DNA of 24,000 nucleotides from an uncultured archaeon. Lineage in GTDB: Archaea > Asgardarchaeota > Lokiarchaeia > Sigyniarchaeales > SOKP01. Below are positions 3,984 through 18,560 of this stretch, in pieces (within the stretch, counting starts at the first letter, position 1; each line of letters opens with the position of its first letter). The stretch covers positions 7,894 to 31,893 of the forward strand of contig CAZWEM010000018.1 in the NCBI GenBank assembly GCA_964632315.1. Reading direction: 5' to 3'. The translations under genes and the position numbers were made by a program. Under the pieces are notes generated by a model. That model ran no database searches, was not told the origin of the DNA, and saw nothing but the letters and a program-made list of their open reading frames with translations.

Positions 3984-4535
3984 TTATATCTTTTCTCCTT
4001 GCTTTTCAAGGATCTCAAACACCAAAGTTTTAAACGCATTATCCACATTCTCTCCCAGTTTTGCACTGGTTTCAATGAATTTACTTGCTTTAATCTTCTC
4101 AGCCAAACTTTTCCCATCATTATCTGAGATCATTCTTTGGTCCTTTAAATCACATTTATTCCCAATTAAAAGGTATGTTCCCTCTTTCTTAACAAATTTT
4201 TTAAAGTCATTGAGCCACTTAGTTTCAATGGTATTGAATGTGTTAGATCTCGTAATATCATATACTAATAGAGCTCCTACGCATCCTTGATAATATAAAC
4301 TCCTCACGACATTATATTTTTCTTGTCCTGCTAAATCCCATACAATTAATCTAACTTTGGCATTTGAATTTTCTAATATTACATCTTTTCGGATGATATT
4401 TGCTCCTAGAGTTGGTTTATAATCTTCTTCAAAAGCATTTTCAACAAATTGGTTTATCAGAGACGTTTTTCCTACAGCACTATCTCCTAATATTACGATT
4501 TTAAAAACGTATTCCCTTGTTTCTTCTGTCGACAT
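3984..4535 (-). CDS. Ras-superfamily small GTPase, Rab-like
   Basis: 183 aa. G1 GDSAVGKTS, G3 WDLAGQE, G4 GNKCD, G5 ETSAK, and a Rab-like YYQGCVGALLVYDIT segment. There is no C-terminal Cys prenylation motif (ends ...EKQGEKI). Confidence 0.9.
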   Translation of the reverse strand: MSTEETREYVFKIVILGDSAVGKTSLINQFVENAFEEDYKPTLGANIIRKDVILENSNAKVRLIVWDLAGQEKYNVVRSLYYQGCVGALLVYDITRSNTFNTIETKWLNDFKKFVKKEGTYLLIGNKCDLKDQRMISDNDGKSLAEKIKASKFIETSAKLGENVDNAFKTLVFEILEKQGEKI

Positions 4536-4633: not shown

Positions 4634-5221
4634 TTATTCAAGAATTTTATTTTCTATTAAAAGCGTCAATCTAAACGAATTATGATTTGGGGAATTTATA
4701 TTTTCTTTAATGCTTATAGGTCTAACTATCTTTTCAGAAGGTAGGGATTTTTCTAATGAATTAATAAGAAAAGCTTTGAAAAGATCGCATGAAATTCCGA
4801 TTTCAGAACAAAAAACACATTTTCTTACGTCAATTACATATTTAATATCTGATTTCTCTGAAATTTCAACTTTCCAATTCGTTTCTATCAAGCGATTTAT
4901 ATCGACAATAATCTCTTCGAATTTTTTCCCAAATGGATATAAATAAAATGAGAATTTTCGACCTATTTCATATAATAATTGAGATGAATCATAAAGTAAA
5001 CAATTTTGCGCAGTAATTATCTTTTTAAATGAAAAAAAATCAATTGTCCCATCCGGATCCACATCTCGAAGATCTTTTAAATCTAATAATTCTGCTTCTC
5101 GTAAAATAGATTTCATTCCATCATAATCAAGTGTATCTAAATAAGATTGGAGGAGTGCAGTTATTACGCGATTCTTAACACTACCTCTATATGCTCCAAT
5201 CATCTCAGAATTATTATCCAT
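4634..5221 (-). CDS. Hypothetical protein, tentatively V4R-like
   Basis: 195-aa ORF, co-directional with and 98 nt upstream of the GTPase gene. Its C-terminal half (LYEIGRKFSF...VIDVRKCVFCSEIGISCDLFKAFLINSLEK) has the Cys-punctuated helix pattern reminiscent of V4R domains. The match is weak and needs profile or structure search. Confidence 0.45.
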   Translation of the reverse strand: MDNNSEMIGAYRGSVKNRVITALLQSYLDTLDYDGMKSILREAELLDLKDLRDVDPDGTIDFFSFKKIITAQNCLLYDSSQLLYEIGRKFSFYLYPFGKKFEEIIVDINRLIETNWKVEISEKSDIKYVIDVRKCVFCSEIGISCDLFKAFLINSLEKSLPSEKIVRPISIKENINSPNHNSFRLTLLIENKILE

Positions 5222-9609: not shown

Positions 9610-9993
9610 TTGTGGAAAATAAATAATTGTCGAATTTATTTATTTATGTCGTATGCATTCGAAAAATATGCAAATCTTCAATTATTTAAGACCCTAAGGC
9701 ATGATCAGATTAAATTTCAATATCCAATCATACTTAGAATGTATGGGTTATTGAACGAACTTAACCTAAAGAATGAAAATCGGTATATCTTATGTAATTT
9801 TATCGACCAAAATAGTGATGTTTTCGATTTAAAAGAGGATATCTACAAAAAAAATAATTCCTGTTCTCTAAATCAACTCTTTCTCTTTGCTATTAGGAAG
9901 GCTAAAGAAAAAAATTTAATAAAGTCTCTTTATAACGAATATCTTAACAGTATTGATGCAATTTTGGAAAAAAGAGAATTAACATCATTTTAA
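9610..9993 (+). CDS. Hypothetical protein
   Basis: ORF with a TTG start at 9610; the first ATG is at 9646 (MSYAFEKY...). No recognisable motifs. Its position directly upstream of a GTPase gene is the only context. Confidence 0.4.
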   Translation: MWKINNCRIYLFMSYAFEKYANLQLFKTLRHDQIKFQYPIILRMYGLLNELNLKNENRYILCNFIDQNSDVFDLKEDIYKKNNSCSLNQLFLFAIRKAKEKNLIKSLYNEYLNSIDAILEKRELTSF

Positions 9994-10090: not shown

Positions 10091-10618
10091 ATGACGGAAC
10101 CCGATTATGTAATCAAGATTTGTTTGCTTGGGGAGGCAAATGTTGGAAAAACATCACTTGTTTATCGCTTTATTGAAAATAAATTCAGAGATAATTATAA
10201 AAGTACACTTGGAGTTAATCTCCTTAAAAAAGACTTGAATATTGAAGATTACGGCGGAGTAGCTGCCACAATCTGGGATCTAGGTGGTCAAGAAAGTTTT
10301 AGATCCCTCCGAAAACTCTACTTAGAGGGAGCGAATGGTGCTCTAGTTATCTTTGATTGGACTCAAAAAGAAAGCTTCCTTAAATTAGAAAGTTGGATAC
10401 AAGATTTTAGATTAGAGAGAGAAAATGAACCAATTTTATTGATCGGAAATAAAGATGATTTAAAAGATAAGGAAAAGGTATCTAAAGATGAAGCATTAGA
10501 ATTAGCACGTCGTTATAAGCTAAAATTTCTTTCTACCTCAGCTAAAACAGGTTCTAATGTAGAAGAAGCATTTAATACTGTTACTAAGACGATTTTAAAA
10601 TCCCAATTAGCTAAATAG
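10091..10618 (+). CDS. Ras-superfamily small GTPase, Rab-like
   Basis: 175 aa. G1 GEANVGKTS, G3 WDLGGQE, G4 GNKDD, G5 STSAK. There is no C-terminal Cys motif (ends ...KSQLAK). Confidence 0.9.
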   Translation: MTEPDYVIKICLLGEANVGKTSLVYRFIENKFRDNYKSTLGVNLLKKDLNIEDYGGVAATIWDLGGQESFRSLRKLYLEGANGALVIFDWTQKESFLKLESWIQDFRLERENEPILLIGNKDDLKDKEKVSKDEALELARRYKLKFLSTSAKTGSNVEEAFNTVTKTILKSQLAK

Positions 10619-10816: not shown

Positions 10817-11209
10817 ATGCCTGAAGAAGAAGATGATCATGAAGAAGAGGAGGAGGAGGAAGAAGAAGAACTCTCCTCTGAAGAAGGTTTAGATTATAAA
10901 ATTGAAAATGTTGTTGCAACCGTTACTGTTGAAATCACTGAAAAAATTGATTTAAATCAAATTGCAAGAAAGCATGCTGAAGTAGAATATAATCCAGAGA
11001 GATTTCCTGGATTAGTCATGCGAATTGAGAAACCCAGAGCAACTATTCTCATATTTTCCACCGGAAAAATGGTTGTTACTGGATTACGTAAAGCGTCTGA
11101 GGCTGAAAGAGTGGTTGATAAAGTTGTTAAAAATATTCGAAAAGCAGGAATAAAATTATCTAATCCCGAGATCACCATTCAAAACATAGAAAACTTAATA
11201 TATCATTAA
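10817..11209 (+). CDS. tbp: TATA-box-binding protein, acidic N-terminal tail plus first TBP repeat; ends at an in-frame TAA inside the inter-repeat junction
   Basis: IENVVATVTVE...YNPERFPGLVMRIEKPRATILIFSTGKMVVTG matches the TBP repeat consensus. The ORF stops at 11207-11209, exactly where repeat 2 should begin. Confidence 0.85.
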   Translation: MPEEEDDHEEEEEEEEEELSSEEGLDYKIENVVATVTVEITEKIDLNQIARKHAEVEYNPERFPGLVMRIEKPRATILIFSTGKMVVTGLRKASEAERVVDKVVKNIRKAGIKLSNPEITIQNIENLIYH

Positions 11210-11218
11210 GTTTATGGA
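11189..11218 (+). other. 30-nt insertion carrying a stop codon and a perfect hairpin, interrupting tbp
   Basis: The sequence is gaaaacttaatatatcattaagtttatgga. A 9-bp inverted repeat aaacttaat (11191-11199) / attaagttt (11205-11213) flanks a 5-nt loop, atatc. The TAA at 11207-11209 lies in the 3' arm. Deleting these 30 nt gives the junction ...[19 protein letters not shown]..., the same length as the canonical QN-x-x-x-SGD junction. Confidence 0.6.
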
Positions 11219-11257
11219 TTTGCGAGTGGCGATCTTCATACGAACATCGATCTAAAT

Positions 11258-11503
11258 ATGGCTGCAATTGTTATGGAGTATGCCATGTATGAACCAGAAG
11301 TGTTTCCCGGGTTAATTTATAGAATGCAAGAACCTAAGACTGTATTTTTAATATTTTCAACTGGTAGAATAGTATGCACCGGAGCCAAGCAAAAAGAAAT
11401 TGTAAGAGATGCCGTAAAAAAACTAAACCAACAAGTACGTGATCTAGGAGTTGCAAAAAAGGAGCTTATAGATAGCGATTACCAAGATATCACGTTTATT
11501 TAA
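11258..11503 (+). CDS. tbp: TATA-box-binding protein, second TBP repeat
   Basis: It is in the same reading frame as 10817-11209. [34 protein letters not shown] matches the repeat-2 consensus. Translation immediately after the TAA gives [16 protein letters not shown], the missing first strand of repeat 2. TBP homology therefore starts near 11219, while the first ATG is at 11258. Confidence 0.8.
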
Positions 11504-12056
11504 ATTTTTATTTTCTATTTTTATATTTTAGTTGATTATGAAAAGCAGTGCTAATCATAAATTCGATAATCAATTTTCGGTAAGCCAATATTTCTAACCC
11601 CTTTCTCATTTGGTGCCATCTTATTGTAAACATCTACAGGACTTTCATAGGGAATTTTACTCCTTAAACCTTCTCGATTTGCCAATAATCGTTCTTTAAA
11701 ATCTTCTAACCATTTTTTCCGGATTTGAGCTAGTTCTTTGGATTGAAATTGATGAGCTTCATATTTATCAAAATTAGCATATTCTATAATTTTAAGTTTT
11801 AAAATTCTTAGGTATACATATCCCCCAAGCCATTAATTCATCATTCGCAAGCGGCTTAAATCCTAATCTTTTCCTTTTTTCTTTTCAAAAAAATCTAAAT
11901 TCTAATCCAATCTCTTCCTTTCAGAGAGAGATCTTTAAGTTATGGGAGGAGTCCCCCAAATTGAGGACATTCTTCTCCAGAATTTATTTAAGAATGTATA
12001 ACATGATAATAAATGATATTAAATTCAGACAAAAATCAATAAAGTGATTGCATTTA

Positions 12057-14294
12057 ATGACAAAAACGATTTTGATGAATAATAAATTAATGAAGGTCAC
12101 AGTCATTATATTATCTTTTATTATACTAAGTATTTTAACCTCCAATATCAGTTTAAACAAAAATGAAGAAAGAAACAATAGCGAACTATTTTCAGAGCCT
12201 TTAGCATCAAGTTCAAAATCGTTTATTTCTATCTGGGATACAACCAAATCTGGTGTTAGTAGTAGCAATCAAGTTCATTTACCTTTATTATCGAGTGGAA
12301 AATATAATTTTACGGTTAATTGGGGAGATGGAAATAATGACACAATTACGATCTGGAATCAAGGTTCTGTAACCCATACATATGCTACCCAGGGTATTTA
12401 TACCATAAAAATATTAGGAAAGATTATTGGTTGGCAATTTAATTACCAAGGAGATAGGTTGAAAATACTTGAAATTCAGCAATTTGGATGTCTACAATTA
12501 GGAAATTTGGGAAGTTATTTTTATGGATGCCGTAATTTAGCACTCACCGCTACTGATAGTTTGAATTTGAATGGAACCACAAATTTAAGTTTAATGTTCG
12601 GAAACTGCCATAATCTTGGCAATAGTGGTGATTTTAATAAGTGGAATACGTCAGGAGTCACAGATATGTTCCAAATGTTTTATAACGCTCAAACCTTCAA
12701 TTGTTCCATAGATAACTGGGATGTCTCAAGTGTAACGACAATGGCAAGAATGTTTGTTGATGCTGACTCATTTAACCAACCCATTGGCAACTGGGTTGTT
12801 TCGAGTGTGATAGATATGAATTGCATGTTTTGCGGTGCTTATTCTTTCAATCAACCCATTGGCAACTGGGATGTCTCAAATGTGAGAGATATGTTTGAAA
12901 TGTTTGGTGATACAATCTCTTTTAATCAACCCTTAAGTAAATGGGATGTATCGAATGTGACAGAAATGCAGGGTATGTTCGATCAAGCATTATCATTCAA
13001 TCAACCCATTGGTGACTGGGATGTTTCTAGTGTGACATCAATGGCTTTGATGTTTGGATGGGCTCTTTCATTCAATCAACCCATTGGCAATTGGGATGTA
13101 TCTAGTGTAACAACAATGGCTTCAATGTTTGCTGGAGCATCCTCATTTAATCAACCGATTGACGATTGGAATGTCTCAAATGTAATAGATATGAGCAGTA
13201 TGTTTGATGATGCTGGTTCATTTAATCAATCTCTTGGATCGTGGAATGTTTCGAAAGTAATAACGATGAATAGAATGTTCTATGGAGCCTCCTCATTCAA
13301 CCAACCCATTGACTTATGGGATGTTTCGAGTGTAACGGATATGTTTGAAATGTTTTCTAGTGCCTCCTCATTCGACCAATCTATTGGTGATTGGGATGTC
13401 TCGAGCGTGGGAGATATGAGAAACATGTTTTATGGAATAGCTTTATCAACACCAAATTATGATAATCTTCTACTGGGTTGGTCGCAGTTATTGCTAAAAA
13501 ATGAAGTAATTTTTGATGGTGGTGATTCCAAATATAGTAATGCTGCCAAAACCGCGCGGCAATACATTATAACTACTTTTGATTGGACGATCATTGATGG
13601 TGGTTTAATATCACCGGGAGAATTCACCTTATTTTCAAATGCAGGCACTCCCGATATTGATGGACGTTTTAATCTTACCTGGACACCATCTTCAAGAGCA
13701 AGTAATTATTCAGTGTATCAAAATTCGAGTTACATTACTCAAGTTAATGAAAACTTATCTCTCTTGACTGCTGAAATTACAAATTTAACCCACATGCTCA
13801 CTGGCTATAATGAAGGAACTTACTACTTTATCATTGTAGCAAATAATGATTTTGATTACACTCTTTCTAATTGTCTCACTGTTGTAGTGAGATTACCACC
13901 AGGAGAATTCGAATTATCATCAGATTCAGGCACTCCCGACCCCGACGGATGTTTCAATCTTACCTGGACACCATCTTCAAGAGCAAATAATTATTCCGTT
14001 TACCTACATTCAAGTTATATTACCGAGCTAAATGCTAGTGTTTCTCTCTTAGGATCTGGAATTACTGATCTGAATTTAAAATTGATTGGTTACGTTGATG
14101 GTGCTTATTATTTTATGATTGTTGCCTATAATAACTATGGTATAAATCATTCAAACTGTATTAATGTGATTGTAATGAAAACTCCAACACAACAACAACC
14201 TCTCCCCGCAATTCAAGGATACGATCTCTACTTGCTTATAGGAATAGCGAGCGTGATAACGACTTTAATGCTTCGAAAACGAGTCAAATCCTAA
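12057..14294 (+). CDS. Secreted/anchored surface protein with BspA-type (DUF285) leucine-rich repeats, two FN3-like modules and a C-terminal membrane anchor
   Basis: Alternative starts are TTG 12048, ATG 12057 and ATG 12090 ([16 protein letters not shown] signal/anchor). The N-terminal VNWGDG...HTY...GIYTIKILG module is typical of DUF285 proteins. About twelve [20 protein letters not shown] repeats follow. Two [35 protein letters not shown] modules come next. The C-terminus is a hydrophobic helix, [16 protein letters not shown], followed by the basic tail RKRVKS. Confidence 0.85.
12631..13430 (+). repeat. Tandem 75-nt (25-codon) coding repeats, about 11-12 copies
   Basis: The motif caacccattggcaactggg recurs at 12777 and 12852, exactly 75 nt apart. 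At the protein level, consecutive 25-aa units end in MF ([77 protein letters not shown]). Confidence 0.85.
13611..14180 (+). repeat. Two tandem 285-nt (95-codon) module duplicates
   Basis: The PGEF codons at 13614 and 13899 are 285 nt apart. Long identical stretches are shared, e.g. cttacctggacaccatcttcaagagcaa in both copies. Confidence 0.8.
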
Positions 14295-14711: not shown

Positions 14712-15191
14712 TTAATCTTTCTGAAAAACAATCATAAATTCACAGAAATCTTCTCCTGTTTGTAAAGCGCAATTTACTTCTTGAGCAAAACAATGAAAAT
14801 TTATCATTCTTTCAACGATTCCTGCAAGTATTCCGGCTTCAAAGGAACAAAAACTTCCGTCTGATTTGATTCCCTTGCCTATCAAATCTTTAATTGATGA
14901 ATGTTCTTTTAATTTTAACTGAATAATTTCTTCTGAACTGTCAGTAATTTCAACTTTTCCAAGATTATAATCGTGAATTATTTTTTTTAATGATTCAGGG
15001 ATCTGATATACATCATTTAATTGTTTGACTTTTAAGATCGTTCCAAGTTCATGCCCCAAATAATAGAAAATGGCTTCTAATTGATGTCCTAGAGCTAATA
15101 AAGCTCCTACTTTCATATCTCCTATTTCTTTACCTTTTTCTAAATGATTCCTCATTTGAGCTAAAATTCCAGAAAGTAATTGTCTATCCAA
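14712..15191 (-). CDS. V4R (4-vinyl reductase-type) domain protein
   Basis: 159 aa. The C-terminal FCSFEAGILAGIVERMINFHCFAQEVNCALQTGEDFCEFMIV matches the V4R signature (C.f.aG.l.G......v.E..C...G...CeF.i). It is the last gene of a three-gene co-directional cluster. Confidence 0.75.
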   Translation of the reverse strand: MDRQLLSGILAQMRNHLEKGKEIGDMKVGALLALGHQLEAIFYYLGHELGTILKVKQLNDVYQIPESLKKIIHDYNLGKVEITDSSEEIIQLKLKEHSSIKDLIGKGIKSDGSFCSFEAGILAGIVERMINFHCFAQEVNCALQTGEDFCEFMIVFQKD

Positions 15192-15221
15192 TCATTTCAC
15201 TTCCTAATTTTTTAAATTATT

Positions 15222-15518
15222 TTATTCAATTTCTACTGATGAGATAAAACCGTATAAAATCGCATCGATAATGTCTTCTTCTTGGATATTAATACTTAAT
15301 TTCTTATCAGCGATTATAATTGTAGGTAATGAAGTTACCTTATAATGCTGGGTTAGTTTATAATTTTTACTTACGTCTATTTTTTCAATATATAATTTCT
15401 TTCCAAACATTGATAAATTTATTCTCTTCAACATTTCTTCGACAGGTTGACAAGGAGTACAATGTGGAGATGAAAAAAGTAATATTTTCGGATATCCACT
15501 TTTCAAAGCACTTGACAT
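15222..15518 (-). CDS. Thioredoxin-fold protein (thioredoxin/glutaredoxin-like)
   Basis: 98 aa. It has the CxxC motif HCTPCQ near the N-terminus and the cis-proline context VTSLPTIII. Size and beta-alpha-beta layout are typical of small archaeal thioredoxins. Confidence 0.75.
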   Translation of the reverse strand: MSSALKSGYPKILLFSSPHCTPCQPVEEMLKRINLSMFGKKLYIEKIDVSKNYKLTQHYKVTSLPTIIIADKKLSINIQEEDIIDAILYGFISSVEIE

Positions 15519-15550
15519 TTACAATCCTTATAACCTATCTAAATAAATTT

Positions 15551-16090
15551 TTATTGATCTTTATATTTTTCATACAAATTCATAATTATTGCTTGAAATG
15601 CTTTATAAACCCCGTTTCCTGTTTTTGCTGAAGTTTTATAGTATCCAAGAAAATTTCTTTCATTAACAAGTTGAATTGCTTTATCATCATCTAAATTATC
15701 TAAATCTACTAGATCGATCTTGTTTCCAAATAGCATTATTGGAATATTTCCACAGTATTTTTTAATATCCTCATGCCATTCACTTACATCCTCAAAACTT
15801 TCCTCTTCATCTGGGTCATGGGAAAAAACAATTATTGCTGCCTTACTCCCCTTATAAAACGTAGGACGCATGAAACTGAACTGTTCTTGACCTGCAATAT
15901 CCCAGAAAAAAAGCTTTACGGCATTTCCCGCAATTTTTTCATCATATTTCGAAAATTGGGCTCCTAACGTCTTTATATATTCCTTTTGGAAACTGCCCTT
16001 CGTATATTTTCGTATCAATGATGTTTTGCCAACGCCCCCATTGCCTATTACAGTAATCTTGAATACAAAATCTTTCCTTTCCTCATTCAT
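15551..16090 (-). CDS. Ras-superfamily small GTPase, Rab-like
   Basis: 179 aa. G1 GNGGVGKTS, G3 WDIAGQE, G4 GNKID, G5 KTSAK. There is no C-terminal Cys motif (ends ...YEKYKDQ). Confidence 0.9.
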   Translation of the reverse strand: MNEERKDFVFKITVIGNGGVGKTSLIRKYTKGSFQKEYIKTLGAQFSKYDEKIAGNAVKLFFWDIAGQEQFSFMRPTFYKGSKAAIIVFSHDPDEEESFEDVSEWHEDIKKYCGNIPIMLFGNKIDLVDLDNLDDDKAIQLVNERNFLGYYKTSAKTGNGVYKAFQAIIMNLYEKYKDQ

Positions 16091-16270
16091 TTTACCATAA
16101 TCACTAAATTGTATTTTTCCGTATCTCTAATTAATTGGATTATTTATCCAAAAATAAACAATACATCATTTTTTATTTATATGGATTAATATAATAACAT
16201 TATACTTTAAAGTTTTTCAAATACTAATTTAGCTATATAATAAAAATTCAGCAAATAAAGCAGATTAGAC

Positions 16271-18095: not shown

Positions 18096-18560
18096 ATGGT
18101 TATTCGCGAAGCCGGCTTATTATTCAGGGGATTCACGCTTGTAAAGAAAAGCTATCATAAATCAACCTTAGGTAAAATCGATACCGACTTGCGGAGTGGG
18201 CTCTTAACCGCTATTCTTAATTTTGCAGAAACTGCATTTTCGAAGGATTTTATTGAATACTTCGAAGGTAAGAAGTATGTCATCGCTTTTAGGAAGGATC
18301 AAATAACAGCTGAAGATAGTTTTGAACCGGAACTTTTAATTTCTTACGCAATAATGGATAAAGAAAAACGCATAGAAAAATATATTCATAAAGTCGTTCA
18401 ACCCATACTAAAAATGATTGCTGACCAATTTAAGAGCAAGAATAATGGTAGAAATCTTTCAGAAGTGACCCAATTTAAATATTTTAAGGAAACCTTAGAT
18501 AAGCTGTTTGGTACTGATACAGAAAATGTGGATCAAAAATTAAAAGGAACATTTTATTAA
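18096..18560 (+). CDS. Hypothetical small protein with predicted longin/roadblock-like beta-beta-alpha-beta-beta-beta-alpha layout
   Basis: 154 aa. Strand-like VIREAGLLF and GFTLVKKSY are followed by the amphipathic helix DLRSGLLTAILNFAETAF. Strands FIEYFEGKKYVIAF and LLISYAIMD come next, then the helix IEKYIHKVVQPILKMIADQF. The fold assignment is inferred from the sequence pattern only. Confidence 0.5.
   Translation: MVIREAGLLFRGFTLVKKSYHKSTLGKIDTDLRSGLLTAILNFAETAFSKDFIEYFEGKKYVIAFRKDQITAEDSFEPELLISYAIMDKEKRIEKYIHKVVQPILKMIADQFKSKNNGRNLSEVTQFKYFKETLDKLFGTDTENVDQKLKGTFY

Follow-up and report, generated by a model that had tools for sequence, protein, structure and literature searches.

The genomes of Asgard archaea contain genes for dozens of Ras/Rab-like GTPases, and both the functions of these proteins and the regulators with which they pair are hard to assign. 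A 24,000-nt stretch of DNA from an uncultured Lokiarchaeial archaeon (Sigyniarchaeales, SOKP01; GenBank assembly GCA_964632315.1, contig CAZWEM010000018.1, positions 7,894 to 31,893), hereafter called the window, contains three consecutive minus-strand genes that encode a Rab-like GTPase, a small thioredoxin (Trx), and a stand-alone V4R-domain protein. Why should a GTPase, a redox enzyme, and a V4R protein be encoded side by side? An initial annotation of the sequence had read this triad as a candidate primitive GTPase-regulator module, with the V4R protein as a TRAPP-ancestor guanine nucleotide exchange factor (GEF) possibly under thioredoxin control. We found by comparison of related genomes that the triad is, as judged from sequence, a genuine three-gene operon that Loki-type Asgard archaea inherit as a unit. 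We also propose, tentatively and at somewhat less than even likelihood, that the operon encodes a V4R thiol switch that is reset by its own thioredoxin and is coupled to the Rab-like GTPase.

The three open reading frames (ORFs) were found at exactly the coordinates of the initial annotation, with the 32-nt and 30-nt gaps that it had described (Table 1). The motifs that it had listed were likewise recovered, namely the G1, G3, G4, and G5 boxes in gene 1, the CTPC and cis-proline signature in gene 2 (C20-TPC23 and P65), and the Cys-rich V4R tail in gene 3. The GTPase start is preceded by a Shine-Dalgarno (SD)-like GTGAT, and SD-like motifs of at least 5 nt stand ahead of 63 of the 90 orthologous starts, compared with 6% at random positions. 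A scan of the window for sigma-70-type promoters and terminators was uninformative for an AT-rich archaeon. The window is about 31% GC, and its gene content includes TBP, deoxyhypusine synthase, and ArgRS. Because it is also GTPase-rich, with three Ras-family genes in 24 kb, a single GTPase-V4R adjacency is weak evidence. An identity of the triad as an anti-phage defence system was ruled out by a PADLOC scan of the three proteins, in which the GTPase and the thioredoxin had 0 matches and the V4R protein had only a noise match of 14.6 bits.

To what extent, then, is the adjacency conserved? One genome per GTDB species was scanned, which yielded 80 loci (L001-L080), and a divergent subgroup comprised 20 loci (L081-L100) with 36-55% V4R identity and 25-62% GC. 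All 78 species-level loci of the window's clade that had enough upstream DNA carried the triad, with the thioredoxin gene approximately 310-390 nt and the GTPase gene approximately 850-950 nt ahead of the V4R start and in the same orientation. The three genes occurred together in 90 of 90 loci with enough DNA, and every gap was 90 nt or shorter. Three divergent loci hinted that the thioredoxin might be dispensable, and this idea was rejected: the thioredoxin gene of L086 (CAPC) was simply uncalled, that of L088 (CVPC) was called from an internal start, and L087, which shows only the GTPase and V4R genes, lies on a contig that stops 55 nt past the V4R gene. In L097, L098, and L099, the order was permuted to GTPase-V4R-Trx with all members kept; gene order is therefore changeable while membership is retained, and the thioredoxin gene is placed before or after the V4R gene according to lineage. 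Several junctions are tighter than those of the window. Both junctions of L083 (GTPase/Trx and Trx/V4R) are 4-nt overlaps, and the GTPase and V4R genes overlap directly in L087 and L098; the GTPase/Trx junction of L085 is an overlap according to gene calls and a 32-nt gap according to separate ORF calls.

In the window's clade, the genomes are closely related and a wider block is also syntenic. The flanks are nevertheless mobile within that clade: a block consisting of a second Ras-family GTPase gene (GTP2) and TBP, which adjoins the triad throughout the clade, is co-directional just downstream of the V4R gene in 45 loci and inverted, as in the window, in 24, and an insertion separates the genes for M29 and CinA in 17 of 66 loci. 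None of these rearrangements splits the triad. In the divergent loci, the window's flanking genes are all absent, and the triad is present wherever the DNA suffices. Background synteny among close relatives was thus ruled out by the divergent loci without common flanks together with the flank rearrangements in the clade, and chance adjacency in a GTPase-rich genome was ruled out by the 90 of 90 co-occurrence and by the single GTPase orthogroup described below. The survey of neighbourhoods that the initial annotation had called for therefore bore out a GTPase-Trx-V4R linkage that is strongly kept beyond background synteny. Median identities were 75.5% for V4R, 74.2% for GTPase, and 68.7% for thioredoxin; the housekeeping neighbours reached 70% (deoxyhypusine synthase) and 64% (CinA and M29). 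We read these values as a higher conservation of the triad proteins.

Other genes recur beside the triad in some lineages. A stand-alone AsnC_trans_reg gene (a RAM/Lrp ligand-binding domain of 82-90 aa that lacks a helix-turn-helix (HTH)) was observed near the triad, on either strand, in nine divergent loci: the three listed in Table 1 and L085, L088, L089, L095, L097, and L098. Neither the window nor any of L001-L080 contains it, so that membership as a fourth gene was rejected for the window's clade; it is possibly a lineage-specific fourth component. In L088 and L092, two of the divergent loci, a GTP2-like gene directly precedes the triad, and TBP is duplicated in tandem in L014, L019, and L028.

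The submitters' taxonomy of several loci is doubtful (L024, L002-L004, L018, L029, L040, and others). L024 (DATKTW010000097.1), which was binned as 'Candidatus Nanopelagicaceae bacterium', carries a full Loki-type locus with 77% V4R identity, and metagenome-assembled genomes (MAGs) labelled Hod-, Hermod-, Thor-, and Odinarchaeota carry loci that are syntenic with Loki-type genomes at 74-82% identity. These data suggest mis-binning or mislabelling, and because of that synteny and identity, the MAG labels are no evidence of a broad phyletic range.

Gene 1 was assigned by profile matches to the Ras-superfamily small GTPases and is Rab-like. It matched Pfam Ras at E=1.1e-42 (145.9 bits; cut-off 21.6) and TIGR00231 small_GTP at 90 bits (cut-off 42.5), with G1 at G16-NGGVGKT23, G2 at T41, G3 at D64-IAGQ68, G4 at N123-KID126, and G5 at S154-AK156. 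Its top PDB sequence matches were Rab23 (7e-34), Rab30, Rab43, Rab11A, and Ypt1, and Ran scored about level with Rab11 in this sequence search. The C-terminus, which ends in ...LYEKYKDQ, has no Cys motif (CC, CXC, or CAAX) of the kind by which the eukaryotic Rab family proper is prenylated and anchored to membranes, and a membrane anchor was predicted in none of the three triad proteins. Among orthologues, conservation of Q68 and of the switch regions is 98% or higher. The window GTPase was the best match of 14 of 14 divergent triad GTPases, at 47-57% identity, compared with 30-40% for other Ras paralogues; by these comparisons, the triad GTPase is a dedicated orthologous lineage that forms one orthogroup.

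Gene 2 is a thioredoxin family member on the basis of its Trx domain (Pfam Thioredoxin, 37 bits; cut-off 23.5), CxxC motif, and cis-proline. It is not a canonical TrxA, since it has HCTPC instead of WCGPC and scored 36 bits against TIGR01068 (cut-off 96.8). Both active-site cysteines, C20 and C23, occur in 100% of 98 orthologues, and P65 occurs in at least 98% of them. The CxPC motif is intact in all 98, as CAPC in 68, CGPC in 16, CSPC in 6, CTPC in 5, CVPC in 2, and CMPC in 1.

The V4R protein of the window scored 29.9 bits against Pfam V4R (PF02830), just below the 31-bit cut-off, and 29.7 bits against DUF2507 (PF10702), below the 35-bit cut-off. At the family level, V4R matched 53 of 55 members (best 2.3e-10), and DUF2507 matched all 55. 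Homologues all start with MDRQLL or MNRxLL at the position of the window protein's TTG codon, and the 334 close relatives have a fixed length and all derive from Asgard MAGs. The family is narrow, because an exhaustive search of 1.84 billion representative proteins produced just 53 matches at E<1e-3. The next relatives by sequence are methanogen V4R/DUF2507 proteins such as MJ0739. In NCBIfam, the best match was the C-terminal half of MsvR (3.4e-11, 43 bits; cut-off 220), with the alignment confined to profile positions 118-236 of 236; at 159 aa, the triad protein is too short to include the HTH domain of MsvR and is not itself an MsvR. The most conserved region of the family is an N-terminal helix pair, IGDxKxGALxALGxQLEAIFYYxGHELG, together with FCSFEAG at the start of helix D.

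The initial annotation had also proposed profile and structure searches for V4R/Bet3 similarity, and the structural part of these gave significant matches. An AlphaFold2 model that was built from a 55-sequence alignment (pLDDT 94.2, pTM 0.88) contains four helices and a four-stranded sheet. Foldseek against the PDB matched this model to the V4R protein MJ1460 (1e-6) and human Bet3 (1sz7, 3.3e-6), to many TRAPPC3 chains (2j3w_E at 9e-6; yeast TRAPPIII Bet3 7kmt_F with a TM score of 0.69), to the phenol-sensor domains of MopR, PoxR, and DmpR (approximately 1e-5, TM 0.53-0.64), to YslB/DUF2507 (3njc, 2e-5), and likewise to BcsD. As modelled, the gene 3 protein has the V4R/Bet3-superfamily fold, and its fold distances to Bet3/TRAPPC3 and to the phenol-sensor V4R domains are about equal. 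In sequence-profile searches of the PDB, MJ1460 was the sole significant match (1.2e-3); no Bet3 or TRAPPC chain appeared at E<=10, and a Pfam search at E<=1 gave no TRAPP-family match.

The cysteines of the V4R protein bear on its possible link to the thioredoxin. The window protein has C115, C134, C141, and C150, in addition to H133. Across 99 orthologues, C115 is conserved in 100%, C134 in 93%, C141 in 97%, and C150 in 97%, and C115 is the sole invariant Cys of the family. In the model, C115 is located at the N-terminus of helix D, and the other three lie on the last two strands. The spacing of the four (19, 7, and 9 residues) matches that of C206, C225, C232, and C240 in the MsvR of Methanosarcina acetivorans (MaMsvR; 19, 7, and 8). 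The C206A mutation removes redox control of MaMsvR (PMC3729527), and the M. acetivorans thioredoxin system re-reduces oxidised MsvR, according to passages of PMC7278568 that cite Sheehan 2015. C115 is the equivalent of the redox-critical C206. In the GTPase orthogroup, no Cys is conserved (C113 occurs in just 52% of orthologues), which ruled out the GTPase as a thiol target of the thioredoxin. Because the thioredoxin Cys pair is intact in 98 of 98 orthologues and the GTPase is without a conserved Cys, the V4R protein is the only plausible thioredoxin client within the module. In L094 and L096, C115 is the only Cys left in the V4R protein (C134V, C141S, and C150D), so that a Cys4 Zn site is impossible, and an intact CAPC or CGPC thioredoxin gene still adjoins the single-Cys V4R gene.

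Thioredoxin and V4R domains also occur in one polypeptide. We found a family of Trx-V4R-V4R fusion proteins of 480-540 aa in 44 clusters, with MAG labels that include Heimdall, Thor, Odin, Hod, Wukong, and Loki (Table 1). Five fusion loci were examined for their neighbours: an AhpC-TSA peroxiredoxin gene directly follows the fusion gene in two, and two ESCRT-III (Snf7) genes precede it in one. The suggestion of the initial annotation that the thioredoxin controls the redox state of the conserved V4R cysteines thus gained independent support from the fusions, the MsvR precedent, and the joint persistence of C115 and the thioredoxin, and it stands as a supported possibility.

On this evidence, we suggest the following mechanism as the best supported of those considered, in which we infer the physical interactions, the direction of signalling, and the steps downstream of the GTPase. 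The V4R protein would be the sensor, with a Bet3/V4R fold and probably a homodimeric structure that contains a hydrophobic cavity. C115 would sit at the start of helix D, accompanied in most lineages by three other cysteines that probably hold Zn. Under oxidising conditions, C115 may become oxidised or Zn may be released, which would change the conformation of the V4R protein, and the dedicated CxPC thioredoxin would re-reduce the protein to reset the switch. The dedicated Rab-like GTPase would bind the V4R protein, which either controls its nucleotide state or is read by it as an effector, and the redox state would thereby be converted into a GTPase signal.

Several points weigh against this thiol-switch scheme. 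Among the five fusion loci, a GTPase gene adjoins the fusion gene in one, and it belongs to an orthogroup different from that of the triad GTPase; a conserved GTPase link for the fusions was rejected on these grounds. Because the fusions are not consistently beside a GTPase, the redox pair can be separated from the GTPase link. Because they seldom adjoin one, Trx-V4R is probably an older redox pair of Asgard-wide distribution, with tight GTPase coupling characteristic of the stand-alone triad. The single-Cys V4R sub-lineage is small, with two loci and three proteins. In Thor-TRAPPC3 and PoxR, four Cys form a structural Zn site that links the beta-sheet with helix D and gives shape to a ligand cavity; the authors of that work favour ligand binding (PMC10933270). 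The V4R cysteines may likewise be mainly structural: 222 of 225 family proteins keep at least four Cys, and three members lack the full set. The module encodes neither a thioredoxin reductase nor an obvious downstream effector.

Phenols are bound by PoxR and MopR, and palmitate is bound by Bet3. The triad V4R protein could accordingly be a small-molecule sensor that binds a hydrophobic ligand in its cavity, with the cysteines merely holding Zn, the GTPase relaying the occupancy, and the thioredoxin used otherwise, for example to keep Zn thiolates reduced at assembly or to act on the ligand. The four V4R cysteines share the topology of the Thor-TRAPPC3 and PoxR sites, in which Zn creates the cavities from which ligand binding was concluded (PMC10933270), and their positions shift by lineage (C134 is lost, C143 is gained, and the divergent subgroup adds C97xxC100), as is expected of a metal site. 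Because of this topology and these shifts, a Zn site is plausible in most members of the family. The ligand-binding AsnC/RAM domain encoded near nine divergent triads also fits such a function. However, the homologous Cys of MsvR is a proven redox switch (PMC3729527), and a purely structural site would leave unexplained a thioredoxin that is dedicated, co-inherited, and even fused. The C115-only sub-lineage, in which no Cys4 site can form, moreover retains the family signature and the thioredoxin, and we regard a pure small-molecule sensor as unlikely.

TRAPP is a GEF for Rab1/Ypt1 and Rab11/Ypt31/32. In a reading that follows the view of the initial annotation, a V4R/Bet3-fold protein, as a dimer, would be the exchange factor for the adjacent GTPase, the pair would be ancestral to the Bet3-Rab1/Rab11 relationship, and the thioredoxin would only tune or protect it. 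Bet3/TRAPPC3 chains are indeed among the top fold matches (1sz7 at 3e-6; 7kmt_F with TM 0.69), the solved relatives of the GTPase include the TRAPP substrates Rab11A, Ypt1, and Rab1B, and the tightest adjacency in the module is that of GTPase and V4R, which amounts in L087 and L098 to a direct overlap of the two genes. Conservation within the V4R family is highest in the N-terminal helices (residues 24-51), and the equivalent helices of TRAPPC3 form protein-protein interfaces (PMC10933270). Within TRAPP itself, however, it is a longin heterodimer that contacts the Rab protein, with Bet3 flanking it (PMC10933270), and no longin, roadblock, or sybindin Pfam domain was found among the genes in or next to the triad, a search limited to the neighbourhoods, so that partners elsewhere are possible. 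The fold is equally near to the ligand sensors MopR, PoxR, and DmpR and to YslB and BcsD, the nearest proteins by sequence are methanogen V4R proteins and MsvR, and Pfam and PDB profile searches gave no Bet3 or TRAPP similarity. Nor does a TRAPP-like GEF explain why an intact thioredoxin is universal or why C115 is the sole invariant Cys. Beyond the common fold, the TRAPP-ancestor GEF of the initial annotation thus found no support, and we consider it improbable. Decidedly improbable as well, in our estimate, is a mixed form in which the V4R protein would be a redox-gated Bet3-fold exchange factor, or a regulator resembling a GDP dissociation inhibitor or a GTPase-activating protein (GAP), for its cognate GTPase; the operon would then have kept a pre-eukaryotic pair of the Rab-TRAPP type in its simplest form, switched on or off by the thioredoxin.

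That the three genes are only co-expressed from one transcription unit (e.g., as part of a stress regulon) while their products act on separate targets would agree with the typically promiscuous nature of thioredoxins as reductants, but is very unlikely, because a specific GTPase orthogroup, thioredoxin, and V4R protein are kept through order permutation, flank turnover, and 25-62% GC, genes overlap in a translationally coupled manner (L083), and Trx-V4R fusion proteins exist, all of which are classical signatures of interacting products. According to Tran et al. (PMC10933270), the GTPase genes of MK-D1 generally lack operon partners that encode roadblock, longin, or TRAPPC3 proteins, so that genome layout is of no help and the matching of regulators to GTPases is hard; this is in favour of such a co-expression view. 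The triad is a clear exception, in which one GTPase lineage has kept the company of a single V4R/Bet3-fold protein and a single thioredoxin throughout the Loki-type radiation.

A few further features of the window deserve description (Table 1). The 30-nt insert in TBP sits exactly between the two TBP repeats and is absent from 74 of 74 orthologous loci, and deletion of exactly these 30 nt restores the canonical IQNIVASGDL. It forms a perfect 8-bp hairpin inside an exon-exon helix (minimum free energy -21 kcal/mol, z=-4.6); at its junctions, a 4-bp helix is flanked on both sides by unpaired nucleotides, which resembles a bulge-helix-bulge splice motif. The insert may represent a mini-intron that interrupts a protein-coding gene, a disruption that leaves TBP split or a pseudogene, or an artefact of assembly, and no further copies were found elsewhere in the window. 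In the window, the V4R gene and TBP are separated by the inserted 748-aa DUF285 gene, and no gene occupies this place in 80 related loci. The 127-aa ORF, which like orf154 is conserved, could, as judged by its size and position, encode an undetected roadblock/longin-like partner of GTPase-2. In the 195-aa ORF, the Cys pattern RKCVFCSE...ISCDLFKAFLINSLEK is V4R-like, and there is a weak match to the ATC_hydrolase family, which also weakly overlapped a V4R domain of the fusion protein P0154. This ORF and GTPase-1 are a possible second pair of a V4R-like protein and a GTPase, which was not used as evidence: the hhalign probability against the V4R family was 1.3%, and a single-sequence AlphaFold2 model had a pLDDT of 48 and was unusable.

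Table 1. Location of the triad, of other features of the window, and of related genes in other loci (positions refer to the window unless a locus is named)
Feature	Position	Strand	Remarks
Rab-like Ras-superfamily GTPase gene (gene 1)	15551..16090	-	179 aa
GTPase/Trx spacer	15519..15550	-	32 nt
Small thioredoxin gene (gene 2)	15222..15518	-	98 aa; C20-T-P-C23, cis-Pro P65
Trx/V4R spacer	15192..15221	-	30 nt; contains SD-like AGGAAGTGA
Stand-alone V4R/DUF2507 gene (gene 3)	14712..15191	-	159 aa; TTG start
AT-rich divergent intergenic region, GTPase gene/cinA	16091..16270	.	Presumed operon promoter region (inferred only)
GTP2 (GTPase-2), second Ras-family GTPase gene	10091..10618	+	Recurrent triad neighbour, outside the core
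TBP gene	10817-11503	+	30-nt insert at 11190-11219; in-frame TAA at 11207-11209
195-aa ORF, no Pfam family	4634-5221	-	98 nt upstream of co-directional GTPase-1 (3984-4535, -)
Secreted or anchored protein with five DUF285 (BspA-like) repeats	12048-14294	+	748 aa; Pfam 2.7e-150
127-aa ORF, no Pfam family	9610-9993	+	Directly upstream of co-directional GTPase-2
orf154, no Pfam family	18096-18560	+	154 aa; syntenic in 65 related loci, 53-76% identity
Stand-alone AsnC/RAM gene, L081	5660-5920		
Stand-alone AsnC/RAM gene, L082	5545-5817		
Stand-alone AsnC/RAM gene, L086	5498-5761		
Trx-V4R-V4R fusion locus, L101	4001-5494, 5611-6006		
Trx-V4R-V4R fusion locus, L103	4001-5491, 5504-5995		
Trx-V4R-V4R fusion locus, L105	2472-5557		

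The triad offers a rare, testable GTPase-partner pairing in the closest prokaryotic relatives of eukaryotes, and its three proteins are small and tractable. Direct coupling would tie oxidative-stress sensing in strict anaerobes to GTPase signalling, and Rab-TRAPP regulation would gain a concrete candidate for its pre-eukaryotic root. Should the V4R protein prove to be a redox-gated exchange factor, the module would stand as a direct archaeal forerunner of the regulation of Rab proteins by TRAPP, and an Asgard GTPase would for the first time be matched with its regulator. If only the Trx-V4R contact is direct, the proteins would represent an Asgard-wide thiol-switch family, both stand-alone and fused, that is related to the methanogen sensor MsvR.

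How does the triad compare with known systems? The initial annotation knew of no experimental description of such a three-gene module, and our searches of full-text literature agree: they found neither the GTPase-Trx-V4R cluster nor the fusion family, and subscription-only papers were outside the reach of the cluster search. As far as could be determined, the three component families are known and their conserved combination is new. Bet3/TRAPPC3 has an alpha/beta fold in common with the triad V4R protein (TM 0.55-0.69, E approximately 1e-5 to 1e-6), whereas no sequence-level relationship exists, and the Zn/Cys site is replaced in Bet3 by a hydrogen bond (PMC10933270), unlike the Cys set of the triad protein. 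The Rab-like partner is linked physically in TRAPP and genetically in the triad. The longin partners Bet5 and Trs23, which provide the main Rab-binding surface of TRAPP (PMC10933270), have no counterpart beside the triad, and TRAPP contains no thioredoxin. Thor-TRAPPC3, known from crystal structures, and two modelled MK-D1 proteins (WP_147663132.1 and WP_147661794.1; PMC10933270) are, like the triad V4R protein, stand-alone Asgard proteins with the V4R/TRAPPC3 fold. They are homodimers with the four-Cys Zn site mentioned above, both of which are probable in the triad protein. Tran et al. 2024 (PMC10933270), however, report no linkage to a GTPase or thioredoxin gene, and the word 'thioredoxin' is absent from their text; an MK-D1 orthologue of the triad V4R protein was sought in their supplement, with no match.

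The sensor domains of PoxR, MopR, and DmpR have the same fold as the triad V4R protein (TM 0.53-0.64), with a Zn site and a ligand cavity, but are N-terminal domains of bacterial sigma-54 activators, whereas the triad V4R protein stands alone and is nearest to archaeal V4R/DUF2507 proteins. Pairs of the MglA-MglB type resemble the triad in that a small Ras-like GTPase gene is co-inherited beside a gene for a small dimeric regulator. In those pairs, the partner is of the roadblock/longin type; in the triad, it has the V4R fold, a redox-active thioredoxin is added as a third component, and a GAP or GEF role is putative. The Trx-V4R-V4R fusions combine, like the triad, a CxxC thioredoxin with V4R domains that carry a Cys motif, and differ from it in being single polypeptides with two V4R domains, without the triad GTPase among their neighbours.

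MsvR, of Methanosarcina acetivorans and Methanothermobacter, has a V4R domain like that of the triad protein, with C206, C225, C232, and C240 corresponding to C115, C134, C141, and C150. In parallel with our proposal, C206 controls the redox response and, according to the passages cited above, the thioredoxin system re-reduces the protein. MsvR differs in its N-terminal HTH and its DNA-binding output, whereas the triad V4R protein stands alone and is linked to a Rab-like GTPase; and whereas the thioredoxin of MsvR is the general one of the cell, that of the triad is dedicated and encoded within the operon.

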